Of a stretch of DNA of 64,000 nt, positions 1 through 44,760 are shown one piece after another. Position numbers and translations under genes: made by a program. Location: NCBI GenBank assembly GCA_000004985.1, contig GG738926.1; one strand, written 5' to 3'. Source of the stretch: Naegleria gruberi. Taxonomy: Eukaryota. The stretch's first letter is position 1; each line of letters begins with the position of its first letter. The notes below the pieces were generated by a model. The model ran no database searches. It saw only the letters and a program-made list of their open reading frames with translations, and was not told the DNA's origin.

Positions 1-1565
1 AAAACACTTTCTGGACAGTATGATTGTTTGGCAAATGCCAACAAGATATCAAACATTTTCTTGTCCCTGAGCATCTTGATTAGTGCTCCCTTTTCCACAG
101 TAGTTACTCCTTCCTCTTCTTCTACGTCCTTATTCCTCTTTACTGATCCCTTTTGTTTGGAGTAGACAGAGATTAGCTCTGCAATAGCTCTGACAGCTGG
201 AATGAAACCAGTCACAATATTATCAGTCACAACAGCGAAGAACAAGATGAGCCCGTAAGCAAAATATGCATCCGTTAATGAGCCAACCACTGGTATAAGC
301 CCAGCTATAATATAGGCAACAATCCAGAGAACCCATAATATCAAAACTGTAAAGGTCTCAACTCTAATACGCCAAGTGTCATTGTCTTCACGAAGAGTGA
401 AAATCAAAAGGACTAGAATAGCTACCAAGTATGACAAACCTTGAACAGCAACAGTGATCAAAGTACCTGTTCCTGCACCACAACCATGATTGAATACGAA
501 AAAGTCTGCAGTTACAGTGAATTTAGTGGAATCAGGATAAGAAGAGAGATAGAAGGTTTCTACTAAACCACAAATCAACCAAATGAGCAAATGCAAAAAA
601 CTAAAGACAATTGTGACTGCTAAATAGAACCACCACTTTAAAACGTGTTGAATTCTAACAATTCTAGTTTCCAATGCAATGTATTTTGCTAATTCTTCTT
701 GAGTTACAGTTGAAATGGCATTTGCCAATACACTTTTGTGAAGACCACTTGCTTTTGACATTTGTCTTCTGATACCTTGGTTTGGATCGAGAGAGTTTAG
801 TTTTTCATCAGTAGTGACTCCTCCAGATGAAGTGGAAAGTGAATCATCCATTTCCATAGTGACAGAACCAGCATCTGAATCAGTGTCATCTGAATCCTCA
901 TCGTAAGAGTCTGTATCCGTCACTGTTGTAGTATTGAAGAGGACTATTCCAGAACCAGTTCCTGGACTATCCTCAACATCTGAAACGTTTCCAGAAGATG
1001 TAGATGGTTGTACTTGTACGGTTTCTCTCTTTCTTCTCGGTTCTCCTCCCTTCTTAATGAGACTCTCTTCGAGACGAAACAATTCAACACGAGTCTTATT
1101 CAAACGAGACATCCAAATCAATCTCCACAATCTCAAAAGTGTTGGGAAGAAGACAACCGGAGCAGCAAAGAAATAGGTCAACATGTAGATGAAACAAGGG
1201 AATATTTTACGACCAACAGTCAAACGTAAGATGAAAATAAAAGCAAATAGACCTGTCAAAAGCAATGCACCAATCATGACAGCAACTTCTCTATATTTTA
1301 CAAGAGGAACTTTCCTAGTTTTGATAACTGAAGCAATTGTGAAAACCACAAATATTAGATAAGTGCCCAGAAGAATACCACTGACAGCTTGACTGCTAAC
1401 AGTCTCTGGACAGAGGCCATATTCTTCCTTTTCTGTTCCATTCTTCAAGAGACTGGGATCACAGACACTTGTAGTATTTGTAGATGTGGAATTTGTGGTT
1501 GTTTGTAGAACACTGAGAATGGATATTAACCCTGTTGATATCCAAGAAGAGGGACCCTCGTTCAT
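1..1565 (-). CDS. 7TM receptor-like protein with C-terminal RGS domain (N-terminal part; 3' end runs off the window start)
   Basis: A continuous minus-strand ORF starts at the ATG at 1563-1565 (plus-strand CAT). The N-terminal ectodomain is predicted to be N-glycosylated. Seven hydrophobic helices follow, with a long Ser/Asp-rich loop between TM3 and TM4. The last in-window residues (..KKMFDILLAFAKQSYCPESV) align with the start of the RGS domain of the paralog at 11131..13116. This ORF is absent from the six-frame track because it has no in-window stop. Confidence 0.6.
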   Translation of the reverse strand, partial: MNEGPSSWISTGLISILSVLQTTTNSTSTNTTSVCDPSLLKNGTEKEEYGLCPETVSSQAVSGILLGTYLIFVVFTIASVIKTRKVPLVKYREVAVMIGALLLTGLFAFIFILRLTVGRKIFPCFIYMLTYFFAAPVVFFPTLLRLWRLIWMSRLNKTRVELFRLEESLIKKGGEPRRKRETVQVQPSTSSGNVSDVEDSPGTGSGIVLFNTTTVTDTDSYDEDSDDTDSDAGSVTMEMDDSLSTSSGGVTTDEKLNSLDPNQGIRRQMSKASGLHKSVLANAISTVTQEELAKYIALETRIVRIQHVLKWWFYLAVTIVFSFLHLLIWLICGLVETFYLSSYPDSTKFTVTADFFVFNHGCGAGTGTLITVAVQGLSYLVAILVLLIFTLREDNDTWRIRVETFTVLILWVLWIVAYIIAGLIPVVGSLTDAYFAYGLILFFAVVTDNIVTGFIPAVRAIAELISVYSKQKGSVKRNKDVEEEEGVTTVEKGALIKMLRDKKMFDILLAFAKQSYCPESV

Positions 1566-2950
1566 TTTGGAGTGATGGTTGTTATTATGGTTTAATCCCA
1601 ACGACTATGGTTGTTGTCATAATTGGTATTGGTTCACGAATGAACAGTAACACCCGAATAATTTAGTTGTGAAAATAATTGACAGACAGGCAAGGCAAAA
1701 TAGGTTGATTTCGTTAAGACTTATGGTGTGAAAATCTTCTACTTACAAGTTGATGAACTGCAAACAAGTTAGAGGAGGTGAGTAGTTGAGATTGTCAATA
1801 CAATCGAGTTGATGATTTTTCTTTTGGATTTTCTGCTAGAAGATCGTGAAATGCTTCTCATCGTATGTCCCATCACATAGACAGATATTCTCCATTCTCT
1901 TTATTGTGAAGGACCCAGTGACCAATCATGCAATCATTCGAGTTAGCAAATGCATTATCACTTGTCGCACCACAGGGCATCACCAAAGAAGAATCTACAA
2001 ATTGCTTTGGTTATGCTTTACCATCAAGTCAAAGAGAGAAATGCTAACCAATGAAAGCAACCTTTCGAAGTAGAAATAATCGAGTAGGTGAAGTAATGAG
2101 CAAGTATCTGATTCTTCATCATCGGAAAGAAATGCGCACCTTAAATTACAAGCCTTGACTGGAAGAAGCCTATTCAGGTACCTCCATTAATGGCTCTTCT
2201 TTTCTGGATTCATTATTATTGTAAAGTAAATATCAATTCATTTGTTGTTGTTATTGTAGTAGAGTTGATGTAAGGAAGAAAAAAGTAAATATTGATATTT
2301 TGTTGAGTTGGTTGTTTTCATCATCAAGTAACAGATTTTACAAAGATTGCAAGAAAGGAGATGAAGTGCTCTAGTAGATAACGTTATGATTTGTTTTCTC
2401 ATTTGCCTTCCAAACTAGATAGCTAAGATAAGAGGTTGGTGCAATTCCGATTCCACCACAATAAAAATTCACCACCATATTCACTTCATGATTTGACTCT
2501 GCTTTTTTAATATTTTTTAAGTCTTAACAATTTCTATTTTTCTAACAGAAATTTACAGTTGGCGGCAAAATTCAACAAAAAAATTATTCATATTTAATGA
2601 TAAATTAGATATTTAGATCTTCAAAAATTAGATATTACAGGGTTTACGTAACTACAAGTATTTTGATTGAACAAAGATTTAATACAATCCAATGTTCTCA
2701 TCCAATAACTTGTTGTTACTCCCGAATAGACTCTTGTCGATCTGACTTCATGCAGGCTAAACGAACAAGCCTATCCGAAGAAGGATGAAATTGTGAATAA
2801 GGCCAAAATCGAACGTTGCCAATGAATGGCTCGACGAGGAAACTGTGATAATGCTTTTCCTAATAACCTGATTCGTACATTGACAACTTGTTTCTTGGTG
2901 ATTGTTGACGTCCTCTCCTGCCAGAAAAACACACAAAAAAAACGAGCAAA

Positions 2951-5900
2951 ATGAGATCTCACAACATCATTGGCTGTTTTTTATTTACCCTGCTATTTAT
3001 TATGATTTTTGGCAGCTGGGTTTCCAATGCCGCTGTATCAATAGATGTAAATTATAATATCTACCAATTAGTTGCCTCTTTCTACAATATCAGATCTATG
3101 GACTTTGACAAGCAAAATAATATCCTGTACATTGTCGGCGCTAATAACAAGGTTGTAAAATATACTGCTGCAAGTGGTACGACTGAATATGATGCATCAG
3201 CATATACTCCTTATGGCATTGCTGTCAATTCTACAAGTGCCTATTTTTCAGTATTTAATCCAGCTTCATTAAAAAAGTGGGACGGAGCTGTAGGAACCTC
3301 ATCTTATCATCTCATTATGCCAGGTTCAGTTTCTACATCAGGTTCAGATGATATAGTAGCAAATTCTTCATTGACGACGAAGCCGAAATATATGAGAATA
3401 TCATCAACCACAGGTGATTTATACTTTACGGAAGCATGCAGAGTGAGAAAAATATCAAATGGTATGGTTCGTGCTGTTGCAGGTAAAACTACTTGTACTT
3501 CCTCATCAGGAGATGGTGGTTCAGCCACAAATGCAGAATTTAATGGAGCTCCATATTATATTGCCTTAACACCAGAAGATGATTTACTTGTCATGGATAA
3601 TGTAAATAGACTGAGAAAAGTTAGCAATGGCACAATTACTACAATTCTATCACCTACCTCTTGTAGAGGTCTTGCTGTCGGTACTAATGGAGATATTTAC
3701 ATAATAGGTAAGTAATTGGATAAGAGCAAATTTCAATAATTATTATGTAGATGATCAAGTAGTTAGTAAGGTGAGGAATGGAGTTTCAACCACTATTGCT
3801 GGTGGTGGTGGAACTTCAACGAGCTCTTTTTCCTCAAATGATCCTCTATCATATGGTTTTGCTTATGCAGAACTCAGTGATATTGTCGTTGGTGTGAATA
3901 ATAGTCTTTATTTTGTTGCTGATCAGAAGTTATTCAAATTAGAACCTTATTGCAGTTCAGGTTATGTACTTTCACCTGATTATACTATTTGCTATCCTGT
4001 CTGCTTTAATACAGTAGCAACATCTCAATCAGTGTGCTCTAATTCAAATGGTACCTGTATTGCTCCTGATACATGTTCTTGCAAAGCTGGTTATACTGGT
4101 TCCAAATGTGAAATTCCAATCTGTTACGGATTACTCTCCAATGACACAGCCAATGCTTGCAGTGGAAGAGGATCTTGTGTAGCAAAGGACACTTGTGTCT
4201 GTCAACCAAATTATTCTGGACTTGCTTGTAATATCACTACCTGTTCTTCAATTTCTAGTACCAGTGCAAATGTTTGCTCTAGAAGAGGGTCATGCACTGC
4301 CTATAATACTTGTACTTGTTCGCAAAATTATTATTATGGAACAGATTGTCAAAATACTTACTGTTATTCAATTTCCTCTACTGATTCAAGTGTTTGTAGT
4401 GGACATGGTAACTGCTTAGATTATAATCAATGTTCTTGTTCTTCAAAATGGTATGGTTCCTATTGTAACATCACAGAATGCTTTTCTATGTTAAGTAACT
4501 CTTCAAATGTTTGTTCAGGTGCTGGTACTTGTAATTTGCCAAATAATTGTACTTGTAATGCTGGATATAATGGAACTAATTGTGAAAACTTTGATTGTTT
4601 CGGAGTGTCTGTGAATAGTGGCCAAAGTGCATGTCAACACAATGGAACATGCTCAGGACCTGGAGCTTGCTCTTGCTTGCCAACATACTATGGAAAAATT
4701 TGTGAAATATCAACTTGTTATGGTATATTGAGCAATTACTCTAGTGTTTGTTCAAGTCATGGAACCTGCACAATGTTGAATACTTGTGAATGCAGCCAAA
4801 ATTATTATGGAAATAATTGCAGCTTCCCTATTTGTTATGGAATAACATATGATGATACTAGTGTATGTTCTGCTCGCGGAAAATGTATTGGCGGAAATAA
4901 TTGTAAATGTAATAATGGTTATACTGGAGCTAATTGCGAGCTCAATATTTGTTATGGTGTTAACTCTGACCAATCTAATGTTTGCTCTTCACGTGGTTCA
5001 TGTGGTGCACCTGATTCATGTCAATGTACTAATGGATACAGAGGTCCAAATTGTCAATATGTTGAAATGATAATGGACGCCAAAGCGGCAGTTTTATCTA
5101 CAGCAGTCTCCAACGTAATAGCTTCCTATGCTCCTAAAACAGCAACATCTTGCAGTTCTATTTTCTCCTCAAAGGATTTGACATATCTTGGCTCCTCGGA
5201 AACTGTCAGATGTATTTGGAATCAAAACACATTCAAAATTTATTTAGGCTACAGACACTTTGTTTATGATAATATGACCATGGATATCTTTGGTAATGGC
5301 ATGAATTTCACTTTGCAAGTAGTCTTGACAAAGGCCATACAAGATAGTGCCAGTGCTTCTATTTCCATATTACCTCAACTATCTAAGGTACCAAAAACAG
5401 CAATTATTGTTAAATCTTACTCACCATTTGTTTTCCAAGCTTTTAGAAATACTTCAATTGCTTGGTCTAACTCAGGTAATACCGATATCTCTACATTGCT
5501 TTCAGGAATGAGCAACAAACCAGTGGTAGTCATTCCTTCTACAGAAATAACCTCAGCTTCAACCAAATTTTCCTTAAATGTAACAGGTAAAAACTGGATT
5601 GGTGCCACTTCAACTAGTGCAAAAGTTGATATTGATTATACTGCAGCCTATCCATACTTTGAATTAGTATCGGAGACAAGTGGTAGTCAATTTACTTGTT
5701 CTGGTTTTGACTGTATTATTGAAGTTAATCCGTATGTTACACCAACTCCTACAGTCTATTTTGATGTACCATTCAATGCTCTCAATAGTGGTTCTGGAGA
5801 TTATGTAATTAGATTTTTGAATAGAGTTGGCTCTACCATTCTAAACAGTTACTATGAGGGTTCAATGAAACTTCAAACAACCTCTAGTGCCTTAACCTAT

Positions 5901-8900
5901 ACAATGTCCTACACTGGCTTTGAAGAAGTGCCAATCGTGTTGCTCAATACTGAAAAACAATACTATGGAAACAAACTCACAATTACTGCTTCTTTTATTG
6001 ACCCGATGGTTGAATATTTGTTGAGTAGTAATAGTATTAGTGTTTCATGGTTTTGTTTTAGAGGTACTTCAAAGACTGGTCCTTTTTCTGCCTATGACTG
6101 TACTTCTCAAACTAAGGAATTAATCATTGGAGAATCTAACCTTATTGAAGGATACCATCAATTCCAATTCACAGCCACTTTGACAAATTCAAAAATCACA
6201 TCCGTTACCAAAACAGCAATTGTGCAAGTTGTTAAAACAAATATTCCAGATATTCTCTTTGACTCTGTTCCTCCAGTTTATCCATCATCAAGAAACTTGG
6301 TATTGAATGCAGTTATTTCTTCTTCCACGCAAATCGGTAGCGTTGTGTGGCAAGTAACCAAGGGTAATTTACTCAATGAGAATATTCTTAGTCAATCAAG
6401 TACTCTCTCATTGGATGGATACAATATCAAATCAACTTTGGTTATTGACAAGTCTTATTTATTACAAGGTGATTCTTATACATTCACTGTTACTGCTTCC
6501 AATGGTATTGGCTCTTCAACTGCAGCTGTTTCAACTGTTATTGATGTAGCTCCAAGAATTGCTTGTCAAGCCTATGACGCAGCCATAACCAATTCCGTTA
6601 TCTATGCTTACTCTAGTGATGTGGTAATTGATTGTGCTTCACTCTCTGACTACTCAATTGCTTCCTATCATGTCGATATATATGCCAACTCAACCAGGGT
6701 AATGACAGTATCTAAAACAATGAAAAAGACTTTTATTACAAAGGTACCATACGGTCCAAATGGAAATATCAGACTGGATGTACGAGCTGTAAACAAGATT
6801 GGATCTATTTCATCTGCTTCTATTGATCTCAAGGTTTCTCTTAAAAATACTGATAACACCCTCGCTGGAAGAATTGGATTTGCTAGTTCTGAATATGAAA
6901 GCAACAAAGCAAGCTTTACAAGATTAGAAAGTGTTGTTACTATGCATTCTTTATTGTTACTTATTATTCAACAAAATTCTGTTAGTGAATTTGCCAGTAT
7001 AGACTCTACAGCCAAAACTACTCTCACCACCTTGATAACCAATATGTTAACTACTTTGAGTGGTCTGAAGAGTATTAGTTACAACGCAGATGACAAATTA
7101 GCTCCTGTTTTTATTCCATTTGCAAATGATGCTTACAGGTTACTTGCTGTTATTTCTCCAACTACAGTGGCTTCCAATGCTGATCTACTCACTTGGGTTA
7201 AATTCTTCATAACGTCATTCAATGATTACAAGACATATTATAGATCTACAGTTGTACCTACTATTTACGACTCTAAACACTTGACAGAAATTGATTCCTT
7301 GATAGGTATTGGCGCAAAGTATATTAGTGATAGTAGTTTCAGTCCATTATATAAGGAAACAGCTATTATTTCCAAATTGATTACTGACGTTACCAATTCC
7401 ACAACAACGACAACCTCCACCATCGTGGATTCCAGTGGTACGGAGACAAGATTTGATATTGTTGACAGAATTCAACAACTGAATGCCAAGACAATTACAT
7501 TCGCTAATTATCCTTCAATTTCTATTTCCTTCCCATCAGATTTCTACTCACAACTCGGTGTTGAAAATTCAGGATCAGGAGTAACCCTCACTTCTGCTGT
7601 TTCAACCTCTAAATATTCCCAACTAGTAAGCCCTTCTGTTGATATTTCTCTTTCTACCTCTTCAGACGCTGTTATTTCTGTGAGTGGATTGCAAGGAAAT
7701 TTGATTCAAATCAATTTTGGCACCTTATCACAACCTAAAGCTAACTTTACCAGTTACAATTATACTTGCAGATTCTTGAATACTACCTCATCACAATGGA
7801 GTCAGTCAGGAGTGTCAAGCTCTATTTCCATTTTGTCAGATGATGGCCAAACTGTCACCTTTTCTCTTTCATGTTTAACTTCTCACTTGACTTCTTTCGG
7901 AGTTGTTTCTGCTATCATCCCTCCAACATCACAATCTAAAACAGTAACAACAGATAATACTGGTGTTGTTGTTGGTGCTGTTTTGGGTACACTCTTGCCA
8001 TTGATTTTGATAGCTGTTATTGTTGTCGTAGTGGTGATAATTGTAATTATTTTATACAAGAGAAAGAAATCTCTCGACTCATCACAAGTTCAAAATGTTG
8101 AATTGGTCAATAAGAATGTTTCAAGTGTTCATATTAGTGACTTCCCTTCAGAAGAAAGCACTCACTTTAAGCAATTGGTTAGTGTATCTTCTGGATCTAC
8201 TAATTCTGATCCACTTGCAAGATATGCTGATATGGTAAAGATTGGACAAGGCGCATTCGGAAGTGTGTTCAAAGGTGTTGATACAAAGCAAGCAGGAAAG
8301 TTGAAGGCCATCAAGGTTATTAGATTTAATTCTGTTGGTGAATTGAACAATATGCTCAAAGAAGGAACTATGCTCATGAACATTGATCACCCACATATTC
8401 TAAAAGTCAACGAGTTTATTATTGACAAAGATAACATTCTCTGTATTGACACAGATTTCTGCGAAGATGGTGATTTGACCAAGCTTACTCTTTCTGCAGA
8501 GCCAATCCCAGAACCAATCATCAAACAAGTAATTTATCAAATGTGTTCTGCTTTGGCCTTTATTCACAACAAGCTCAAGATTATTCACAGAGATGTTAAA
8601 CCACACAACATTTTCTTGAAAGAATTGACAGATTTTTCAGTTCAAACAGTTTTGGCTGACTTTGGTCTTGCTAAACAAGATCAAAACAACAGCATGAATT
8701 CATATGCTGGTACACCACTTTGTAAGTTTTTATTTTTAATTATTTAATTAACAACCAATTAAATAGACATGAGTCCAGAACTTGCCCTTGGAGGTAAATA
8801 TAACTATAATACTGACACTTGGTCTCTTGGTGTTGTAGCCTATCAATTAATGACTAAAGATATCACAACTGCTCTAAGTCATTTGTGCTTAACAGGAGAT

Positions 8901-9125
8901 TCAGAAGATACTAAGAAGAGAATTAGAGCCAAATTGGATGAGACTGGTCAATACTCTGAAGCATTGAAAGAGATTGTCATTTCCATGTTAGAAAAAGATG
9001 CTGCATCACGTCCATTTCCTCAAGAATTAGTCGATCGTCCTTTCTTCCAAGATTATAGACCAAAGAAGAAGAAGAATAACATTTTCAGATCCAGTTCTGC
9101 AGGAGAAGATGATATGTATATGTAA
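2951..9125 (+). CDS. Receptor Ser/Thr protein kinase with an NHL-repeat + tenascin-type EGF-repeat ectodomain (about 2030 aa)
   Basis: Exons are 2951..3707, 3751..8721 and 8767..9125. The introns are 3708..3750 and 8722..8766, both GTAAGT...TAG. It opens with a signal peptide (MRSHNIIGCFLFTLLFIMIFGSWVSNA). NHL-like repeats are recognisable (YIVGANNKVVKY, LLVMDNVNRLRKVSNG). About 9-10 repeats follow of the form C-x11-13-C-S-G-x-G-x-C-x5-C-x-C-x2-(Y/F)-x-G-x2-C. A roughly 900-aa S/T-rich ectodomain leads to a TM helix (AVLGTLLPLILIAVIVVVVVIIVIILY). The kinase domain carries GQGAFGSV, AIKVI, HRDVKPHN, DFG and GTPL-Y-MSPE. The Tyr codon of that last motif is split by intron 2. Confidence 0.8.
3990..5060. 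repeat. Tandem array of about 9-10 tenascin-type EGF repeat units (period about 93-99 nt) inside the receptor kinase ORF
   Basis: The protein shows a reiterated motif ...C(Y/F)G..S...S.VCS.(R/H)G.C.....C.C...Y.G..C. The alternate and reverse frames of this Cys-codon-rich array produce the spurious His/Val-rich ORFs in the track. Confidence 0.75.
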
Positions 9126-9225
9126 ACTTATTAAACAAATTTTAATGACCTGTTGATTTCAGTAGATGCATAAAAATTATCCAACACTGGATGAAGAGAA
9201 CCCAGTAATTGCCTTCCTTTATGGA

Positions 9226-10650
9226 CTACTCCTCATCAGAGCTAGGCTCATCAGAGAAATACACTTTATCAAATAATTTTAATCCAGCAGGTGTTGAACT
9301 AATCTCTCCAGATATGGAATTCCTTTTAAAATATGTTTCATGATAGGAAGCAATTTTTCTCAATTTAGGAAAAACATCATTAAACAATAAATTCACTTCT
9401 GTTAAATTAGCAACTTCCAAAGTTGTAAAAATCAATTTTTCAATACCGTTAAATTTACCCCTTATATCCCAATCAAAATTATCAATGTTAATAATTTTAA
9501 GTTGATTGGAAAATACAGAATGTGAAATAAGGTTATACGAATCGTCTGAACCACAATTATCAATCATTAAGGTGGTTAGATTAATCATATTTGGACTGTC
9601 AACAATCATTTTTACACCCTCACTCCCAATATCATTGTTACTGATATCCAAATAAGTCAACTTGGTAATATACTTGCTTTCACATAAATATTTACATGCT
9701 TGTTTAGTACACAAGCCATGATAAATGATAAGACTCGATAAATTACTCATATTTGGGCTATTGGCGATGTCAATTATTCCATCTCCAATTCTACACCCTC
9801 CTAAATTCAAATAGGTCAATTGATTTAAATATTTGCTATTAGCAATTTCCTTACATCCTTCTCTCTCAAAACTATTTGAACATAAATTGAGACTAGTGAG
9901 ATTCTTAAAATGTTCATTCCTTGTTATTGGTTCCATATTTTTTATGTAACTTATTTCTAAACATAAGCTTGTCAATTGAGTTAATTGACCAAAATCCAAA
10001 GCTTCATCAACAAAAATATCATTAATTTCCAAATTTGTTAAATTAGTGAAATATTTTCCATAAGCAAGAGCTTTTAAAATTGACTTATTCGCATTGAAAA
10101 GTGATTCCAATTTCAATATCCGTAAATTTTTACAATTTTCACTATTTGCCAAATATTCAATGCCCTCCCTAATTTCTGATTCTCCAAAATCTAAACGTGT
10201 TAAATTTTTCAAATAAGGACTGGTTGCTATTAATTTACAACATTCATCATCAATTTCATTGGCAAACAATATCAGACTCTTCAAATTGCGCATCTCTTCA
10301 CACTGACACAACTCTCTAATACACTCCAATCCAACAAAATCATCGAGACGATAACAATTACTTGCATCCAATTGAGTCAAATTGGAAAGTAATTTGTTTT
10401 TGAACAATAAATTGTTTAATGTACTTCCTCGGGTGAGTTTAATGGAGAGAGGTAGTTTGCAGCACTGATCAAACCATTGTTTGGAAACGAGTGAACAAAT
10501 TGGAATAATTTCCTTCCTATTATGGAGAAATGGTAAAATATTCAGTAGAATATCATCGTATAATGTGGGGGAGGAGTATTCGTGCATTTTCTTACATTTT
10601 GATGGTGGTTGAACACCAGTACCACTTTCAGCACTAAATATTCTTTTCAT
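9226..10650 (-). CDS. F-box-like / leucine-rich-repeat (RNI-type LRR) protein, 474 aa
   Basis: The single-exon ORF starts at a real ATG at 10648-10650. The N-terminus has an F-box-like motif (ILLNILPFLHNRKEIIPICSLVSKQWFDQ). More than 10 RNI-like LRRs follow (L..L.L..C/N.I.D.G...). It lies convergent with the receptor kinase, with about 100 bp between the two stops. Confidence 0.7.
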   Translation of the reverse strand: MKRIFSAESGTGVQPPSKCKKMHEYSSPTLYDDILLNILPFLHNRKEIIPICSLVSKQWFDQCCKLPLSIKLTRGSTLNNLLFKNKLLSNLTQLDASNCYRLDDFVGLECIRELCQCEEMRNLKSLILFANEIDDECCKLIATSPYLKNLTRLDFGESEIREGIEYLANSENCKNLRILKLESLFNANKSILKALAYGKYFTNLTNLEINDIFVDEALDFGQLTQLTSLCLEISYIKNMEPITRNEHFKNLTSLNLCSNSFEREGCKEIANSKYLNQLTYLNLGGCRIGDGIIDIANSPNMSNLSSLIIYHGLCTKQACKYLCESKYITKLTYLDISNNDIGSEGVKMIVDSPNMINLTTLMIDNCGSDDSYNLISHSVFSNQLKIINIDNFDWDIRGKFNGIEKLIFTTLEVANLTEVNLLFNDVFPKLRKIASYHETYFKRNSISGEISSTPAGLKLFDKVYFSDEPSSDEE

Positions 10651-11130
10651 TTTTTTATTTCAGATAATTAATTTTTAATGAAATGGATTTGATGAGTTCC
10701 CAATTTGGGGTTCTGAACTTGTTATTCAAACTGATGATACACAAACTACAGAAGAATGCTCTGAGAACAGTCATACGATTGTATTCTAAACTATCATACT
10801 CATTAAATATAACAATGCGAAACTCTGAAACACTGGATTTGCAGAGTTTCTTGAAGATCATTCCATTATTTAAATTGCTGCAGTGCCTGTTGATCTATTG
10901 TTGGGCTCAAAGAAGAATAAACAGTTTCGTTTTGTAGTGTATTTCGAATAAATCTTGTTTTCACAATTTAAACTAATGTTAAAGGACTAACTCTCTCAAC
11001 AACTCTTTCTTATTTGAATTGTCCTTTCTCAAAGTGGATGGGGATCAAGATTAGCATCAGCAACATGTCAAACTTTCGAATAAAAAACACTTCAAAAAAA
11101 TAGCGCAACCACAAGTTCATCTCTGTAGCC

Positions 11131-13116
11131 ATGTCATCCATGTGGCTTTCAAGTGCATCAACCATTGACATTTCTCATCTGGTGGTTTCAACTTCATATC
11201 AACTAAACGAAACCCTTTCGAATAATTCCACAAATTCAACAATATGCCATCCCATTCTCTTTCAATTGGGCAACTTTTCCCGCGAATCCACTCCACAAGA
11301 ACTCTACGGACTTTGCCCCGACGCTCTCACCACTCCAATCTTTAGTTCAATTTTATTATTTCTAATCATTCTCATGTCCATGGCCAGCATTTTAGGAATC
11401 ATTGCCTACAGACACAGTGGACACATCAAAGCCAGAGGTGCAACCACCATTTCCCTCTCAGTTTGTGTCCATCTGGTGTTCGTGTCCATTTTCTTCCTTC
11501 GTCTAATGATCGATCGAAAGACATTTCCGTGTGCAATTTATACATTGCTCTATTTTTTATTACCGGCAGCTGTTACATTACCCATGATATTGAGGTGCAT
11601 TCGTCTCTATTCAATGTACAAATTGAATTTAATCAAGACGAGGATATTTGATGTGGATGGAGTGGATTCGGTGAATGGTGGAGGTGGACGAAAGAAAACT
11701 AATGAAATGGTGAAGAAGGAAGAAATTGTGAGTTCAGTAGTGGAAATTGTGGAAGAATCGAACCATGTGGAAATGAAGAATTTTGAGAATCGTCAACATT
11801 CGGTTCATTTTGAAAAAGTGTTGAGTGAATCGACAATTAATCAAGAAACACCTTCTTCATTGAATACCACCTCAATAACTCATAACAGTTCATCCAATGT
11901 CGATTCTCTAAATAATTCAGGAATAGACGAAACTCTCAAGCAACAGGAAAATAATTTACAAATCTTGTCAGAGGTGAAGGGAACTCAATCGACTTTTGAC
12001 GTGAATGAAAATATTCACACCAATGATGAATCAACAGTGACTGACGATGAGGACATTACCAACACTTTCACATTGAATACTTCACGGTCAACTTGGAATC
12101 TTTCAGACATTAATTCAAAGGAAGTTCAATCACAAGCCAGAAAGCTCAATATTTTGACATTTATTTCATCGTACAAGTTTATGGTAATTTGCTATGCCTG
12201 TTTGCTGATTTTACAATTTTTGCTATGGCTTGGTTTGGGAGGAATTGAGGAGATTATTTTTACAGTTTCTCCTCCTGCAGATAATTCAAGAATTTTCCTA
12301 TTGGAAGGAGGAATGTTACTCTTCTCTCATGGATGCAGTATCAGTACCAAGTTTGTCATTATATTTGGAGTGATTACTGTCATTTACTTTATTATTGAGA
12401 TTGGTGCATTCATTTTGTGTCTGTTTGCTGATAGAGATACTTGGAATATTAAGAAGGAAACTGTCATTTTGCTAATTTTTCAAGTAATATGTCTACTCTT
12501 GTTTGTCATTACGGGAAATATTGACATTATTGTGATATTGACAGATTATTTTATTCCATACGGATATACCTTAATGATCTATTCCTATATTGAAATTCTG
12601 ATTTATTCCCTTATTCCAATAATGAGATCCATGTATGAAAATTACAAAAAGAAACGTCAGGTAAAATTCATGCAACAGGAGGCCTCAGAATTGAGCAAAT
12701 CAACAAGTTCCTACCATTTGAAACCTGTCCCATTGTCAGATGTCGAACGAGTTCTTATGAATAAGAGAACATTTAACATTGTTTTGGATTTTGGAAGAAG
12801 ATCCTATTGTGTGGAATCAGTTCTTGCATGGAGAGACATCCAGAGGTATCAAAAATCGAGAAGACATAGAAAGAAAATTGCCCAACACATTATTAGTACC
12901 TATTTAACAATTGGATCTCCTTTCGAATTGAATATTTCGAATATTGAAAAGAAACGATTGGAATACTCAACTATTATTGAGGAATCTAAGAAATTGGAAA
13001 GTTCTTTATTTGATTCTTTAGAATCACATTGTCTGTCAGATATGACAGATTTATTCGATCGGTTGAGATCATCAAATGCTGAAATTGATACCCTAGTCAA
13101 GTCATTTAAAAACTAA
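11131..13116 (+). CDS. 7TM receptor-like protein with C-terminal RGS domain, 661 aa
   Basis: Single exon. Seven predicted TM helices include IFSSILLFLIILMSMASILGIIAY and YGYTLMIYSYIEILIYSLIPIM. A long S/T/N-rich loop sits between TM3 and TM4. The C-terminal ~130 aa match RGS-fold signatures (F..VLDFGRRSYCVESVLAWRDIQRY ... LFDSLESHCLSDMTDLFDRLRSS). It is a paralog of the minus-strand gene at 1..1565. Confidence 0.7.
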   Translation: MSSMWLSSASTIDISHLVVSTSYQLNETLSNNSTNSTICHPILFQLGNFSRESTPQELYGLCPDALTTPIFSSILLFLIILMSMASILGIIAYRHSGHIKARGATTISLSVCVHLVFVSIFFLRLMIDRKTFPCAIYTLLYFLLPAAVTLPMILRCIRLYSMYKLNLIKTRIFDVDGVDSVNGGGGRKKTNEMVKKEEIVSSVVEIVEESNHVEMKNFENRQHSVHFEKVLSESTINQETPSSLNTTSITHNSSSNVDSLNNSGIDETLKQQENNLQILSEVKGTQSTFDVNENIHTNDESTVTDDEDITNTFTLNTSRSTWNLSDINSKEVQSQARKLNILTFISSYKFMVICYACLLILQFLLWLGLGGIEEIIFTVSPPADNSRIFLLEGGMLLFSHGCSISTKFVIIFGVITVIYFIIEIGAFILCLFADRDTWNIKKETVILLIFQVICLLLFVITGNIDIIVILTDYFIPYGYTLMIYSYIEILIYSLIPIMRSMYENYKKKRQVKFMQQEASELSKSTSSYHLKPVPLSDVERVLMNKRTFNIVLDFGRRSYCVESVLAWRDIQRYQKSRRHRKKIAQHIISTYLTIGSPFELNISNIEKKRLEYSTIIEESKKLESSLFDSLESHCLSDMTDLFDRLRSSNAEIDTLVKSFKN

Positions 13117-13260
13117 TTTAACCTATTCAATATTTTAAATTGTTTCATTCCCATTTTCTTAAAATTGCCAACTGGAAAGTTTACAATGGCTTAATTCCTA
13201 TAATTAGTCCACAAAGTTTGTGTTGTAAACAGCACTCTAGTCCTTCCATTTCAAAAAAAA

Positions 13261-14196
13261 ATGAAACTACTTGAGCTTCCCATTGAGATGATCCTCCACA
13301 TGATTGATTTTATTATCGAAAAGGATCCGCTCCGATCAAGATTTCCAGAAAATATTAAAAATTTGTGTAAATTGGATTTAATTTCCATGGAACTTTCGAA
13401 TCATCCTCTCTTTCATCAGCATTTGGATAATTACTGGGAAATTATCTTGCTCCATTTCGTCCATATTACCCTCGACAAAAATGGAAAAGTTAATGGTGCT
13501 AAAAGTGGAATTGAATTTTCCACAGTTGGATTTGAAGCTAATTTCAATCCGATAAAGGAAAGGAAAATGTGTAAAATGTGTTTCTTCACGATCAATAGCA
13601 TTGAAAAGCTAAAATTTAAAGCGTTTCGTATTCAACTTTTGCATGATTTATCCGAAAGTTCAAAACCAGTGTTAGAAACCTATAATTTGTTGAGAGTATT
13701 TACAGAAGAAACATCATCCGTTAATTTTGGCAAATCATACATGATGCAGGTTGTTAGAACAGCCCAAAATAATTACGTTACATACGATCGTAAGTTTACA
13801 ACAAATTTTTGTAAAAAGTTAAATTTTAAAATTCAAGAAAAAAAAACAAATTCTTTTGTAATCTTTCCAAAAACATTGAAATCACTTTCTGAATTTGTGG
13901 AATTGGCTGACAGTAGAGATTCCACCACCCCAAAATTAATTTGTTTATGTGAAGAATCTGAATTGAGTTTCGAACAAGTTTCAAATTATGTGGAAACTCA
14001 AAAAGTAACCGATTGTGAAATTATTGGAATAGGAAAAGGAGAAGATTTGGAACTCATCAACAAATCCCTTAAAAATCTTGTAGAAACTTCTTATTTTCAT
14101 GAATCTGGGCTTTTATATTTGGAAAGGAGAAATAATATTCGAAAGTTTGCCAAAAAAATTCCTAATTTTCATGAAACAATTCCTAATTTGGATTGA
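13261..14196 (+). CDS. Hypothetical protein with an F-box-like N-terminus, 311 aa
   Basis: The ORF starts at a real ATG. The N-terminus (MKLLELPIEMILHMIDFII) resembles an F-box. The ORF contains an in-frame candidate 48-nt intron at 13790..13837 (see findings). Confidence 0.5.
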   Translation: MKLLELPIEMILHMIDFIIEKDPLRSRFPENIKNLCKLDLISMELSNHPLFHQHLDNYWEIILLHFVHITLDKNGKVNGAKSGIEFSTVGFEANFNPIKERKMCKMCFFTINSIEKLKFKAFRIQLLHDLSESSKPVLETYNLLRVFTEETSSVNFGKSYMMQVVRTAQNNYVTYDRKFTTNFCKKLNFKIQEKKTNSFVIFPKTLKSLSEFVELADSRDSTTPKLICLCEESELSFEQVSNYVETQKVTDCEIIGIGKGEDLELINKSLKNLVETSYFHESGLLYLERRNNIRKFAKKIPNFHETIPNLD

Positions 14197-16938: not shown

Positions 16939-17180
16939 AAATGCATCAAGGAAGTATTAGATTTTGTAAAAAACCTTTCTTAAGCCACATATTTCCTAGA
17001 TTTTCGATAAATTTTTAAATTAAAAAAAGTTTAAAAAAAAATTCAAAGACTTTTTCTCTTCTTTTGAATTCACCGTAATTCTTTAATTTGCTCTCGTTTC
17101 TTCTTACCTGGCAAAAAGCAAACCATCCAACTACAACACTTCAACCACATCCACCATTTCTTTGTAGCTTTCTATAGAAA

Positions 17181-18176
17181 ATGTACACTAATGAAAATAC
17201 CTTTAGCGACAATACTGATGAAGAATTGTTTGACTTTAATTTTGGTTTTCCGTTAACTCATGATGATGAACAAGTATTGTCAACAACCACTGAATATTTA
17301 GGTAGCTTCCAACAACAAAAAGAACATTTACAAGAAGATTTTTCAACAACTTCAGTTGATTCTGTCTTTGTTGATGATCAAGATTTGGTTGATGGTTTTG
17401 CTGCTTTGGAGCAACAAGAAGCTCAACTTATGAGCAATTTGCATGCTTTTGTCTCCATGTATTCTACAGTAGAGATGGATATTCTTGTTGATCAATATTC
17501 ATTAGCTTCACCAACAACAAGAACTTTCCTCAGTCTTGATCAAAACACTTCTCCTGAAAGTGTTGTCGATCAAGTTGTTATTGGCAAGAAGTCTTCCAAA
17601 GACATCTCCAAAGGAAAGTTTGAACACTCTTCGTTTGTGGAAAAGAGAACCAAGAAGGCAAAGAAATCAGAAGAGCAATCGATCAAGAAACGTGCAAAGA
17701 AGTCTTCTCCTGATTTATGGGAACACACAAAATTCTCTGAGAGTGCACCTTACTTTGAGATTGTCACTGATGTGAAGGAGATGGAGCTGATTCTTGAAGT
17801 AGCTCAAACAAAACGAAGACAAAATGGTCCACTAAATTCAGATAAGAATGATATTGTCCATTACTGTGATTTGTCGTACAAGATTGAACAATTGGATATC
17901 AACAAGGTAAATTATGTTTCCCTTAAAGGTTTACTTGATAAGAAGACCATTTACAATGGTGAAAAGTCATCCAAAAGTTATACATGGATTAGATTGAAGG
18001 GTACGTCAGAGTACTTCTTTTTATATTGCCAAACTGGCAAAACCAATGCTGTTCATAACATCATGTCAATCAACAATACTGAACTGGTCAGTACAAGATC
18101 TGACCATCTCTCTAAATATTCTGCAAAATGTTCTGACACTGTCAGAATCATAGGTCCAAAACAAACCAAGTACTAA
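17181..18176 (+). CDS. Hypothetical protein, acidic N-terminus with a basic KKRAKK (NLS-like) middle, 331 aa
   Basis: Single ORF with a real ATG. I recognise no domain. Confidence 0.5.
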   Translation: MYTNENTFSDNTDEELFDFNFGFPLTHDDEQVLSTTTEYLGSFQQQKEHLQEDFSTTSVDSVFVDDQDLVDGFAALEQQEAQLMSNLHAFVSMYSTVEMDILVDQYSLASPTTRTFLSLDQNTSPESVVDQVVIGKKSSKDISKGKFEHSSFVEKRTKKAKKSEEQSIKKRAKKSSPDLWEHTKFSESAPYFEIVTDVKEMELILEVAQTKRRQNGPLNSDKNDIVHYCDLSYKIEQLDINKVNYVSLKGLLDKKTIYNGEKSSKSYTWIRLKGTSEYFFLYCQTGKTNAVHNIMSINNTELVSTRSDHLSKYSAKCSDTVRIIGPKQTKY

Positions 18177-18903
18177 CCTACCTGGTTTGCTATGAACCTC
18201 GCAAGCGAATACTTAATTTCCCTCAATATTACTCTCAGTATCATACATAAGGATTCACCCATCTTATGTGTGATATTGCTGTGATACGGATTGGAAAATA
18301 AGGTTTCTATTGCGAATTGAATTCAATCATTGTTTTAATAATTAAATAAAATTCTTTGTAAATAACATAATTAAATTTAATACTCGGATCAGCATTGAAA
18401 TTAATCATTTAAAAATTCAATAATTCAATGATGTTAAGGGTGGAACAAGTTTTATTATTACATTCTTTGCACGTTTCTTCAAAAAAGGATGATGAAAATC
18501 CACCTTTGAACAACGTGATTTCCAACCTCACGTTTCATCCATTTCAATCCTGCACCTAAAGTGATGATTTCAAAGCTTTAAAGAAGGTTACGTTCCTTCA
18601 TCAAAGCCTAAAAAAACAACACAAAAACAATTCGAAAAGTTCTTTCAATACAATAATAACGGCCGTTATTAGGAGGCTCCTATTGATTCAGGAAATTCAT
18701 TTTGTTATATAGATAATATATATTAGTGTGAATTGAAAACGGACGTTAATCATTTTACATTCATCATCACATTTGGGAAAATTAAATTATAAAAGTTGAT
18801 AAATCACTTCCGATTATTCATCATCATCATCAGTGTAAATAGTAACACCACCAAATAATTGTAGTATATAATAGTAGTATTTAAAATAGTATATTAATAA
18901 TAA

Positions 18904-20585
18904 TTGAAAATGCTCAATACAACACTTCATAAACAGAAAAAGAAGGTGAGCAAGAAATCTCAACCTAAAATTCACCAAATTACCATCTCTAAATATATCA
19001 ATGATAAATATGCTCTAAAATCTGTTGAATTGGGAACTGGTTCCTTTGGGGATGTTTATTTGGGAGAGGAAACAGATCCGATCACTAGAAAGAAGAGAGA
19101 TGTGGCTATTAAGAGAGTGAGATTGGAAAGATATGGTCCTGAACATTTCAAATATTTGGTGGCAGAAATTGAAATTATGGCTGGTTGTCAAAATGAGTTT
19201 GTCATGTCACTTGTTGATAAAATTGAAATTCCAAGAAAGGAACTCTATTTGGTAATGGACTTGTGTGAGGCAAATTTTAAATATTACATGAATAATGCAC
19301 GAAAGAGGAGGCAAGATAAGAGATTGCCTTTACTTTCAGAGAAGGAAATTCAATATTGGATAAAACAAATTAGTAGTGGATTGGGATATTTACATTTGGA
19401 AAAGAAGATTTGCCATCGTGATATTAAACCACATAATTTGCTACTCAAGAAAAAGGGTCACGAAGTTGCTTTTGATTTCTATGCCAAGATTGGAAATTAT
19501 GATGAATATACCATTCTGATTAGTGACTTTGGTCTTTCCAAAGTGTTGGATAGCAATCCAATTGCAGAGACAATTCTTGGAACTCAATGTTATAGATCTC
19601 CACAGCTGGCACTCTTCCAACCATACTCATTCGATGCAGATATATTTGCTTTGGGTGTGGTGCTGTTTGAAATGATTGCTGGTTACTGCTTGTTTGGTGC
19701 TCAAGTTACTAATCCAAAGCCAAAATATGGTGAAATTATTAGTACTTTAACAGAGAATATTGACTGGAGCTTTTTATCTGATGCACTTGATATTTCTCCA
19801 GAGCTGGTAGATCTTCTCTCTGGCATGTTACAATTTGAAGTGGAGAAACGTTTGAATATTGAACAAATTTTGCAACATCCCTTCCTTAATATGGATTTTT
19901 CAGAAAGTGAAGTTACTACTACCAGGTCATTCCATCTGAAACTATACCAACTGTATCATATATTGAAATTCCTCTTACTACCACTACTACAACTGACAAT
20001 GATTCTCCAAACAACTCAACTCAACAACAGCAACAAGTTCCTGTACAAATTATACTACCAACCAGCGAGGAAGAAAAAGAAAAAGAATTGCCAGTTAACG
20101 AACCAATCCAAGTAATACAGTTGGAACGTGATGAGCCAACTCCTACAACCTTTTCAGAATTTGTCTCCTTCTCCTATGAAAGAGTTGGACTGCCCCAAGA
20201 TTATACACGAGTAAGCATTATCAAGGATGAGATTGGTTGTGAACCTGCCCTTGTTAAAACTGAAAAAATTTCCAAGAGCAAACACTCCAAAGTTCTCATT
20301 CTTCTCAGCAGTGACAGCAACAAGGCAATTAATTATTCAATCAAGGTACTAGAGTCGCCAGTCAAACACACACAAACAGGAACAGTTTCTTCTACTGTGG
20401 AATATGAATTGGAGAATATTGAAATGGAAATGATTACTCTAGAGTTTGAATTTACTCATTCTCTCACCAACAGATGGCTTTCTTATTTCACAACTCCAGA
20501 ACAGATTCCATTCACTATTGAAATTTATGTTCAATCGAGAATTCCAGAACATACCTCAACTCTTTCTATTGAATCAATCAATTAA
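18904..20585 (+). CDS. Cytoplasmic Ser/Thr protein kinase with a T/S/Q-rich C-terminal tail; the reading frame switches near 19911-20066
   Basis: The kinase domain is in the frame of ORF 18904..20115 (GTGSFGDVYLG, AIKRV, HRDIKPHNLL, DFGLSK, SPQLA). After ..SESEVTTT that frame degenerates into low-complexity junk. A second frame stays open from 19911 to 20585 with a plausible tail (..IPSETIPTVSYIEIPLTTTTTT..QQQQQ..EEEKEKELPVNEPIQ..) and has no ATG of its own. I read it as one gene with either an unusual intron or an indel. Confidence 0.55.
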
Positions 20586-43400: not shown

Positions 43401-44760
43401 CTCAAGAATGGCTCACTAATGGTGTTCAAACTTTGATTTCTTCTTCCAATAATTTGGTTACCATTTCTTGCTTGACAAATCACCTTACAACATTTGCAGT
43501 TTTCAAGAATGATATTATTTACATTCCACCTACAAATTCTACTACTAATGGCGTACAAACTTCTGATCCAGCTCTTGCAATTGCTCTTGGAATTATTCTT
43601 CCACTTTTGGCAATTGCAATAATTATTGTAATAATTATCATTGTTGTGATTCTGGTATTGAGATATAGAAAGAAGAAACTTTCCTCTGAAGTTTCCAATA
43701 CTTCAGCCATTGAACTGAGAAATGAAAATAAGAGAGGATTATTCGATACTGACATTTCAGACTTCCCTTCAGAAGCAAGTGTCTATTTCAAACATTTGAA
43801 TTCTTCCTCAATGGCTTCAACTGTTTCTTCCACATCTTCTTCTAATGATCCATTCTCTCGTTACAAGGACATGGTTAAAATTGGAGAAGGTGCTTTTGGT
43901 TCAGTCTTTAAAGTTATTGACACTAAAAATAACAATAAGGTGAAAGCCATCAAAGTTATTCGATACAAATCAGTGGAAGAATTAAACTCCATGATGAAAG
44001 AAGGAACTCAATTAATGAACATTAGCCATCCAAACATTCTCAAAGTGAATGATTTCTTTGTGGAAAAGGACAATTTACTATGTATTGACATGGATTTCTA
44101 TCCACAAGGTGATTTGAGTACCTTAATCAACCAACAGGAAGATTGTAAAGAAGTACACATCAAGCAAATTATTTATCAAATGTGTCATGCTTTGCATTTC
44201 ATTCACAATGATTTGAAATTAATTCACAGGTAAGTTTTTTAAGTTTTTTTATGGAATTTCAACAACAAATTCAATTCACAGAGATGTCAAACCTTCAAAT
44301 ATTTTCATCAAGGTATTAAACGGAAATGTCATCCATACAGTATTGGCAGACTTTGGTTTAGCAAAGGATAATAAGAATTCAGCAAGTATGAGCTTTGCTG
44401 GTACTCCACTCTGTAAGTATTTTCATAACTGTCAAAATTCATAAACATCAAATAGACATGAGCCCAGAATTGGCATTAGGAGGTAAATATTATGCCAACA
44501 CAGATGAATACTCTCTCGGAGTGACTGTCTATCAATTAATTACCAAAGACACCATGACTGCCATCAGTCACTTGTACATGTCAAAAGACGCAAAAGAAGT
44601 ACAAACTCTTACACGAAAACGTTTGAAGGAGAGTGGTGATTATTCTGATAGATTAATCGATATCTGTCTACAAATGTTGGAAAAGGATAACTGTGCACGT
44701 CCATACGCTCAAGATATTTTGGAAAATTCATACTTTAATGATATTAGAAAGATTAGATAA
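37404..44760 (+). CDS. Receptor Ser/Thr protein kinase with an NHL-repeat + about 18 tenascin-type EGF-repeat ectodomain (paralog of 2951..9125), 6 exons
   Basis: Exons are 37404..37827, 37896..38030, 38077..38352, 38400..44229, 44282..44412 and 44456..44760. The introns start GTAAGT, GTAAGT, GTATGT, GTAAGT, GTAAGT. It has a signal peptide (MRTIFVICIAVVAWFILLFLTSEIHC) and NHL repeats (YIMDYGNNRVRKINSEGV, YITEYVGNKIRKISAS, FIADTDNDRIRKIATNG). About 18 EGF repeats, a long S/T-rich ectodomain, a TM helix (LAIALGIILPLLAIAIIIVIIIIVVILVL) and a kinase domain (IGEGAFGSV, AIKVI, IHR|DVKPSN, DFGLAK, GTPL-Y-MSPE) follow. Confidence 0.8.
38600..40715. repeat. Tandem array of about 18 tenascin-type EGF repeat units (period about 93-105 nt) within the second receptor kinase
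   Basis: The reiterated motif is C(Y/F)G..S.N.S.VCSG.G.C.....C.C...Y.G..C. The spurious His/Val/Leu-rich ORFs in the track (38484..39086, 39312..40037 and others) are alternate-frame products of this repeat. Confidence 0.75.

Follow-up and report, generated by a model that had tools for sequence, protein, structure and literature searches.

In the model put forward for the plant protein AtRGS1, a chain in which seven transmembrane (7TM) helices are joined to an RGS domain restrains a self-activating G-alpha subunit until phosphorylation-dependent endocytosis removes AtRGS1 (PMC3718340). This endocytosis follows phosphorylation of AtRGS1 by plant receptor-like kinases (RLKs) and by kinases of the WNK family (WNK8) (PMC8584482, PMC3718340). 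7TM-RGS architectures occur in many bikonts, and 229 RGS proteins were counted in Naegleria gruberi (de Mendoza et al. 2014, PMC3971589); the species is assigned 44 G-alpha subunits (PMC8584482). In Naegleria fowleri, 28 7TM-RGS proteins have been described (Bosch, Jeck & Siderovski, J Biol Chem 2022, PMC9283941); for three of these, the RGS domain is a GTPase-accelerating protein (GAP) for the N. fowleri (Nf) subunits G-alpha 2, 3, 5 and 7, and the domains bind the transition-state form selectively, an interaction that a switch-1 G-to-S mutation blocks (PMC9283941). The present work concerns two genes of this type, hereafter gene 1 (1..1565, minus strand) and gene 2 (11131..13116, plus strand), in a stretch of 64,000 nucleotides from N. 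gruberi (GenBank assembly GCA_000004985.1, contig GG738926.1), the whole of which is called the window.

An initial annotation, made from the letters of the window alone, had described the two genes as paralogs pointing away from each other around a receptor kinase gene and an F-box/leucine-rich repeat (LRR) gene. It had proposed that each encodes an AtRGS1-like, self-contained GAP receptor, and that the arrangement reflects either an inverted segmental duplication or a co-evolving signalling neighbourhood. The explanation favoured here, which I consider likely, is that gene 1 and gene 2 diverged long ago within a 7TM-RGS family of Heterolobosea (Naegleria, Willaertia, Acrasis) that follows a receptor-GAP logic, and that their arrangement is incidental; the receptor-GAP function itself I regard as reasonably probable. 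Both genes are already in the public N. gruberi annotation, and the Naegleria 7TM-RGS family has been published and partly characterised biochemically. What is added here is modest: a predicted class C-like fold with its parallel to GPR158, and the placement of a serine/threonine (S/T)-rich region in loop 2.

Architecture of the two proteins

The features of the two genes are listed below (aa, amino acids; TM, transmembrane helix; pLDDT, predicted local distance difference test of the AlphaFold2 models).

1..1565, minus strand: 7TM-RGS gene 1, exon 1 (NAEGRDRAFT_59935, EFC36752.1, UniProt D2W2I5; complete protein 637 aa)
1401..1565, minus strand: gene 1 extracellular N-terminus, aa 1-55, with sequons N25, N30 and N42 and conserved Cys35 (CDP) and Cys52 (YGLCPE)
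1047..1400, minus strand: gene 1 TM1-TM3, aa 56-173, with a GRKxFPC motif atop TM3 (Cys124), from hydropathy, AlphaFold2 and conservation
702..1046, minus strand: gene 1 cytoplasmic loop 2 (TM3-TM4), aa 174-288, S/T/D/E-rich, pLDDT 27-52, predicted disordered
135..701, minus strand: gene 1 TM4-TM7, aa 289-477, with HGC in extracellular loop 2 (Cys362), D-x-DTW after TM5 and LTD..YG before TM7
1..134, minus strand: gene 1 linker and first two RGS helices, aa 478-521, ending ...FAKQSYCPESV
11131..13116, plus strand: 7TM-RGS gene 2, single exon, 661 aa (NAEGRDRAFT_75602, UniProt D2W2I8; Pfam RGS, AlphaFold2)
11332..11676, plus strand: gene 2 TM1-TM3, aa 68-182, with FPC (Cys134) atop TM3
11677..12114, plus strand: gene 2 cytoplasmic loop 2, aa 183-328, S/N/T/E-rich, pLDDT 24-35, predicted disordered
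12115..12702, plus strand: gene 2 TM4-TM7, aa 329-524, with HGC (Cys402), DRDTW and LTD..YG motifs
12739..13110, plus strand: gene 2 RGS domain, aa 537-660, from Pfam PF00615 (aa 538-639), Foldseek and contact residues

Gene 1 is cut by the edge of the window. Its frame opens with an ATG at 1565, with an in-frame stop 15 codons further upstream, and runs for 521 codons; exon 1 comprises these codons and two nucleotides of codon 522, base 1 of the window being its last base. The missing part was retrieved from contig k127_192891 (ENA ERZ929261, 7800 bp), which is 99.1% identical to window positions 1..6397 (22 mismatches, 13 gap openings). A 38-nt intron (GT..AG) starts just left of base 1, and beyond it lies a 352-nt exon 2 that carries most of the RGS domain, the share within the window being about 26 residues (aa 496-521). 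The spliced product is the complete protein of 637 aa; it differs from EFC36752.1 in one residue, at which the window agrees with the NCBI entry. The ERZ929261 sample is labelled a metagenome, and a close N. gruberi strain was evidently present in it. The open reading frame (ORF) of gene 2 is 100% identical to EFC36720.1 / XP_002669464.1. EFC36720.1 and EFC36752.1 share one N. gruberi scaffold of 174,974 bp, and the UniProt numbers D2W2I5 to D2W2I8 leave space for exactly two genes, as seen between gene 1 and gene 2.

Aligned by BLASTP from the N-terminus to the start of the RGS domain, the in-window part of gene 1 and gene 2 gave 152 bits (E=8e-44, 27% identity over 566 columns), while the RGS domains alone are 37% identical (E=8e-30). 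Judged by these alignments, the two genes are true paralogs, as had been claimed. Kyte-Doolittle plots show seven hydrophobic spans in gene 1 and seven in gene 2, in agreement with the seven helices of the AlphaFold2 models. Before TM1, each protein has three to five NxS/T sequons and a conserved pair of cysteines (CDP...YGLCPD/E); the annotation had called both N-termini glycosylated, and they probably are, glycosylation itself being a prediction. A conserved cysteine lies just before TM3 in both proteins (GRKxFPC) and another in the TM4-TM5 loop (HGC). [quoted passage not shown] Both loop 2 and the RGS domain would accordingly lie inside the cell. The long S/T/D-rich loop described earlier is borne out by composition in both proteins: gene 1 has some 115 residues there (S 15%, T 11%, D 10%, E 8.5%), gene 2 some 145 (S 13.5%, N 12%, T 10.5%, E 10.5%), with a pLDDT reported as below 40 for the loops. 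In the family alignment, the length of loop 2 differs greatly between relatives.

The AlphaFold2 models were computed from alignments of 9 sequences for gene 2 and 17 for full-length gene 1. In gene 2 the seven TM helices have a pLDDT of 70-86 and the helical C-terminal domain of 70-84; in gene 1 (predicted TM-score, pTM, 0.64) the bundle reaches 80-95 and the RGS domain 74-88, and helices 53-82, 94-117 and 124-173 make up the TM1-TM3 region (pLDDT 79-95). All GPCR matches of the gene 1 model found with Foldseek belong to class C (mGlu5, mGlu3, GPR156), and the top structural match of the bundle is GPR158 (PDB 7shf, 7ewp), at a sequence identity of about 12%. According to the models, then, the bundle is of GPCR type, and its predicted fold is closest to that of class C receptors. 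At the sequence level the link to class C is weak: the Pfam family 7tm_3 was matched by neither gene 1 nor gene 2 themselves, but by 4 of 25 relatives from which the loop had been deleted (best E=3e-6), as the sole recurring family, and a profile of the loop-deleted 7TM core had no match among PDB sequences. The large ligand-binding ectodomain of class C receptors (Venus flytrap and/or Cys-rich domain) is not present in the two proteins, where the N-terminus before TM1 comprises 55-67 residues.

The C-terminal RGS domain that had been annotated in both genes was found inside the window in gene 2, and in gene 1 only through exon 2, outside it. With Pfam PF00615 (gathering score 23.9), gene 2 scored 25.3 bits over residues 538-639 and complete gene 1 scored 38.2 bits over aa 496-597, the match covering positions 2-101 of the 117 of the profile. 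Taken alone, the fragment of about 26 residues within the window had no Pfam match; the family RGS profile matched this part of gene 1 at 40.9 bits (positions 1-31). A profile of eight family RGS domains matched RGS2, RGS18, RGS17, RGS10 and RGS16 in the PDB with E values of 1e-5 to 4e-4, and a single-sequence phmmer search of PDB with the C-terminus of gene 2 returned no match. In Foldseek comparisons with the PDB, both models matched almost solely RGS domains, with a probability of 1.00. The TM-scores of the gene 2 domain were 0.79 with RGS8, 0.73 with RGS16 and 0.73 with RGS4, that of gene 1 was 0.72 with RGS4 in its complex with G-alpha-i1 (1AGR), and the values obtained with RGS1, RGS4, RGS8 and RGS16 spanned 0.66-0.79 over the two models, in which the RGS fold of about nine helices is present. 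The domain of gene 1 is followed by a tail of about 35 residues containing a single Thr; gene 2 has no tail and ends one residue past the last RGS helix.

The residues that contact G-alpha were located by alignment to a rat RGS4 sequence whose numbering reproduces the Y84, S85, E87, N88, N128, L159, D163, S164 and R167 of the literature. Y84, E87 and N128 align with identical residues in gene 1 and gene 2, and D163 and R167, placed via an alignment to RGS18, correspond to a D and an R that are invariant in the family. Four of the five contacts E87, N88, N128, D163 and R167 are thus kept, N88 being substituted, a pattern more in keeping with a GAP-competent domain than with a degenerate RGS-homology scaffold. 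Profile searches, predicted fold and conserved contacts all agree with a GAP-type RGS domain.

The family and the age of the split

An exhaustive HMMER search of 1.84 billion proteins (E<=1e-3) with a profile of TM4-TM7 that excludes the RGS domain found 119 cluster representatives. A Pfam RGS domain is present in 69 of the 107 representatives scanned; the remainder are mostly short and are probably fragments. An organism is named for 23 of the 30 matches that were looked up, in every case N. gruberi, N. fowleri, N. lovaniensis, Willaertia magna or Acrasis kona, and no plant or Trichomonas protein is among these 23 named clusters. On this profile evidence, the receptor half, which the family profile matches at 247 bits in gene 1 and 230.8 bits in gene 2 (TM4-TM7), is a Heterolobosea-restricted family. 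The proposed likeness to AtRGS1 holds for the architecture only; the named clusters matched by the receptor half are all heterolobosean, and the S/T-rich tail of AtRGS1 is absent.

Gene 1 and gene 2 each have their own ortholog in N. fowleri and in N. lovaniensis, at 44-52% identity, which implies that the split between them predates the divergence of these Naegleria species. In a neighbour-joining tree of 53 members (304 columns of concatenated TM4-7 and RGS, 100 bootstraps), the two genes fall on opposite sides: none of the 100 bootstraps made them sisters, and a clade must take in 23 of the 53 tips before it includes both. Gene 1 is joined by its own orthologs from N. lovaniensis and N. fowleri in 100 of 100 bootstraps, gene 2 by its own in 91 of 100. 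Against gene 2, gene 1 scores 206 bits, and at least 25 members of the family score higher, among them N. gruberi D2VZJ7 (297 bits) and D2VZJ2 (270 bits); conversely, gene 1 finds its best non-orthologous match in D2VZJ2 (244 bits) rather than in gene 2. An intron interrupts the RGS region of gene 1, and gene 2 has no intron.

The N. fowleri orthologs are FDP41_011859 (gene 1) and FDP41_004577 (gene 2), both labelled 'RGS domain-containing protein' in UniProt. Their gene models look faulty. That of FDP41_004577 (627 aa) begins inside TM2, and tblastn places the N-terminus and TM1 just upstream (VFQX01000037, 9815..10294 of the 22-kb locus); FDP41_011859 lacks 14 residues of TM3 (FPCFIY...) that are present in all relatives, probably through a wrongly called intron.

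The genes between and around

The remaining features of the window are the following.

1566..2950, no strand: intergenic region, 1385 bp, between the divergent gene 1 and receptor kinase gene
2951..9125, plus strand: gene for a receptor kinase of 2028 aa, in three exons (2951..3707, 3751..8721, 8767..9125) separated by introns of 43 and 45 nt
9226..10650, minus strand: LRR protein, 474 aa, LRR_6 at 48.6 bits, F-box-like N-terminus at 18.8 bits (threshold 24.3)
10651..11130, no strand: intergenic region, 480 bp, between the divergent LRR gene and gene 2
18904..20115, plus strand: protein kinase, 403 aa
21756..22718, minus strand: BTB_2 and SPRY protein
22888..25563, plus strand: 891-aa protein whose C-terminal kinase domain is cut by an intron
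60026..61672, minus strand: second F-box protein, F-box-like at 30.5 bits, above threshold

The order and orientation of the four genes (gene 1 minus, kinase plus, LRR gene minus, gene 2 plus) are as initially described. So is the receptor kinase, which has NHL/teneurin-like repeats, about ten EGF repeats, a large ectodomain, one TM and a Pkinase domain (Pfam, 110.7 bits). Its splice sites were read from the sequence, the second junction restoring the motif GTPLYMSPE, and the gene calls on k127_192891 agree. In the presumed F-box/LRR protein the LRR part stood and the F-box match stayed below threshold. A six-frame hmmsearch of the 64-kb window found no further 7TM-RGS or RGS gene, and no G-alpha gene was found in it. 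The window contains four kinase genes. One of these, at 38441..44233 (plus strand), is a second EGF/teneurin receptor kinase, a 1930-aa ORF that ends in a kinase N-lobe, probably followed by an intron. Over about 1600 residues it shares 35% identity with the first such kinase (2951..9125), 35 kb away on the same strand; by sequence, the receptor kinase family is locally duplicated in the window. The 403-aa kinase lies 5.8 kb downstream of gene 2 and shares 41% identity with one found about 5 kb downstream of gene 1's ortholog in N. fowleri (17157..18269 of that locus); this might reflect old linkage, or no more than similarity among members of a large kinase family.

In N. lovaniensis the ortholog of gene 2 is on PYSW02000035 and in N. 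fowleri on VFQX01000037, with a C2-domain gene on one side and an NAD_binding_1 or DUF4246 gene on the other; the orthologs of gene 1 lie on different contigs, PYSW02000011 (N. lovaniensis) and VFQX01000012 (N. fowleri), next to a large protein without a recorded Pfam match and with a trypsin-like gene near. Searched by tblastn with the two 7TM-RGS proteins, the kinase and the LRR protein, the 22-kb loci gave, within 10 kb of these four orthologs, neither a kinase or LRR homolog nor another member of the family. Two candidates for a kinase ortholog were considered and rejected. The large divergent neighbour of the gene 1 orthologs (1923 aa; 1449 + 560 aa) showed no similarity in tblastn, and an NHL/EGF-teneurin gene 9 kb from the N. 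lovaniensis ortholog of gene 2 has no recorded kinase domain and gave no tblastn match in the part of it that lies inside the locus. In a contig from a fourth heterolobosean, a gene 1-like gene has a cathepsin gene upstream and no kinase or LRR homolog adjoining it.

Three explanations would give the arrangement a meaning. An inverted segmental duplication, in which one 7TM-RGS gene was copied in reverse across the kinase/LRR block and the copies then diverged, would suit two paralogs in opposite orientation 9.6 kb apart, but is extremely improbable. Blastn with a word size of 7 between window positions 1..2950 and 9101..13300 found chance matches only (best-scoring 20 nt, longest 34 nt), so that no reverse-complement similarity is visible; the proteins are just 27% identical, each has closer relatives elsewhere in the family, the tree never pairs them, their separate orthologs make the split older than the Naegleria species, and the RGS-region intron is confined to gene 1. 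Decidedly unlikely, too, is that the two genes are the remnant of a very old tandem array, most copies of which were dispersed while unrelated genes became inserted between these two. Lineage-specific families usually grow by tandem duplication, the receptor kinase family is likewise locally duplicated in the window, and a second N. gruberi pair, D2VZJ7 (EFC37803.1) and D2VZJ2 (EFC37800.1), is apparently close, sharing a scaffold of 233,110 bp and bearing neighbouring accession numbers. However, with the two genes on opposite sides of the tree, such an array would be older than most of the family's radiation, and the orthologs are unlinked in N. fowleri and N. lovaniensis. Moreover, chance alone would yield about 0.2-0.8 family pairs within 10 kb (n(n-1)/2 x 2d/G, with n=30-60 assumed from the 28 of N. 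fowleri, d=10 kb and the 41-Mb genome of N. gruberi). The remaining proposal, of a functional module in which the kinase phosphorylates the S/T-rich loop and so controls GAP activity or endocytosis while the LRR/F-box protein might control turnover, is very unlikely. Gene adjacency in eukaryotes rarely means a shared pathway. The phosphorylation of AtRGS1 by plant RLK and WNK kinases provides a precedent (PMC8584482, PMC3718340), both proteins have the long S/T-rich cytoplasmic loop, and a shared, divergent intergenic region links each 7TM-RGS gene to an inner gene. Against this, the arrangement is absent at the four orthologs and at the fourth heterolobosean gene; the paralogous kinase at 38441..44233 has no 7TM-RGS gene beside it, from which it follows that this kinase type is not paired with 7TM-RGS genes as a rule; kinases are dense in the window; and the F-box match is sub-threshold. 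The placement of gene 1 and gene 2 around the kinase and LRR genes is thus best taken as incidental and specific to N. gruberi, the meeting of two large families that expand locally, and the neighbourhood as such would have no function.

A receptor-GAP reading and its relation to known systems

In the favoured explanation, a short, Cys-containing and probably glycosylated N-terminus would lie outside the cell, followed by the seven-helix bundle, with loop 2 and the RGS domain inside. Held at the inner face of the membrane some 35-45 residues after TM7, the RGS domain would bind GTP-loaded G-alpha and speed the GTP hydrolysis of at least one of the many G-alpha subunits of N. gruberi; for gene 1 and gene 2, GAP activity is inferred from relatives. 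The class C-like bundle, with its disulfide-bonded N-terminus, may sense a small ligand or a partner, and either an extracellular cue or phosphorylation of loop 2, whose S/T-rich and acidic sequence makes it a likely phosphorylation-regulated site, might alter the GAP activity that reaches G-alpha. Ligand control and the role of loop 2 are speculative.

As an alternative, the proteins might be class C-like GPCRs of the conventional kind, activating G proteins, with the RGS domain as a built-in terminator, or else as a docking scaffold devoid of GAP activity. The class C-like fold of the bundle speaks for it, as do the recruitment of RGS7-G-beta-5 by GPR158, the top structural match (PDB 7shf, 7ewp), the engagement of 7TM-RGS proteins by both slow- and fast-exchanging G-alpha subunits of N. 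fowleri (PMC9283941), and the replacement of N88. I nevertheless consider it unlikely: the equivalents of E87, N128, D163 and R167 are invariant in the family, which points to a functional GAP surface, each of the three N. fowleri 7TM-RGS domains that could be interpreted was a GAP (PMC9283941), and guanine nucleotide exchange factor (GEF) activity has been shown for no 7TM-RGS protein (PMC3718340). A more elaborate scheme makes the family an offshoot of class C GPCRs that carries its RGS in cis, loop 2 a phosphorylation gate to the RGS domain, and the adjacent kinase one operator of the gate. Loop 2, greatly enlarged and disordered, sits where a class C receptor would face its G protein, and as the gate it would govern the access of G-alpha to the RGS domain; the offshoot would hold in cis what GPR158, in the case of RGS7, holds in trans, and a kinase operating the gate would parallel RLK-AtRGS1 signalling in plants. 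Taken as a whole, this scheme is very improbable indeed.

Several observations weigh against the explanation favoured here, in its functional part as well as in its view of the neighbourhood. The Pfam score of gene 2 is barely over threshold (25.3 versus 23.9); N88, a contact of G-alpha in RGS4, is Ser in gene 1 and gene 2 and Ala in some relatives; and the position of S85 is Cys in both, as in RGS2. The N. fowleri proteins whose GAP activity was tested have EGF, lectin and GPS ectodomains that gene 1 and gene 2 lack (PMC9283941), a difference that places gene 1 and gene 2 in other subfamilies. As regards the neighbourhood, the synteny comparison draws on few independent lineages: with N. fowleri and N. 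lovaniensis closely related to each other, the two amount to about one comparison, so that a single rearrangement in their ancestor could have broken an ancestral cluster. The D2VZJ2/D2VZJ7 pair hints that family members may cluster above chance, and mild clustering from old local duplications is possible.

As it stands, the observation matters little, the genes and their family being known and their arrangement showing no detectable signal of duplication or of conserved linkage. Given their conserved G-alpha contacts, the members with short ectodomains would be sensible subjects for GAP assays. Because G-protein pathways are druggable and N. fowleri is a lethal pathogen, FDP41_011859 and FDP41_004577 could join such work.

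Among known proteins, AtRGS1 and the other plant 7TM-RGS proteins have the same order of parts as gene 1 and gene 2, an N-terminal 7TM region and a C-terminal RGS box, and the logic proposed for AtRGS1, a membrane GAP that restrains G-alpha until a signal arrives (PMC3718340), is the same. The likeness is one of architecture, plant proteins accounting for none of the 23 named clusters matched by the receptor profile. AtRGS1 carries its S/T-rich endocytosis tail after the RGS box, whereas in gene 1 and gene 2 the S/T-rich segment lies in cytoplasmic loop 2, and plants usually have one 7TM-RGS gene where Naegleria has dozens. Of the class C orphan receptors GPR158 and GPR179, compared here together with RGS7-G-beta-5, GPR158 binds RGS7 as a separate subunit, in contrast to gene 1 and gene 2, in which the RGS domain is part of the chain; GPR158 also has a large ectodomain in place of their short N-terminus, and the resemblance to it is one of predicted fold, at a sequence identity of only about 12%. 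The best matches of the RGS domains, in sequence as well as in fold, are of the R4/RZ type (RGS2, RGS4, RGS8, RGS16, RGS17, RGS18), small soluble proteins, whereas gene 1 and gene 2 carry the domain on the same chain as a receptor. Closest of all is the N. fowleri family, although in the four members studied, Nf 7TM RGS1-4, the ectodomains are large and contain EGF repeats, lectin domains and GPS motifs, as opposed to the N-terminus of 55-67 residues and the very long TM3-TM4 loop described here; neither an intracellular loop nor class C receptors are mentioned in the text of PMC9283941. The N. fowleri proteins come from the same genus and have the same order of parts, seven TM helices and then a C-terminal RGS domain, and the contact residues of gene 1 and gene 2 fit the canonical G-alpha/RGS interface demonstrated for that family (PMC9283941).

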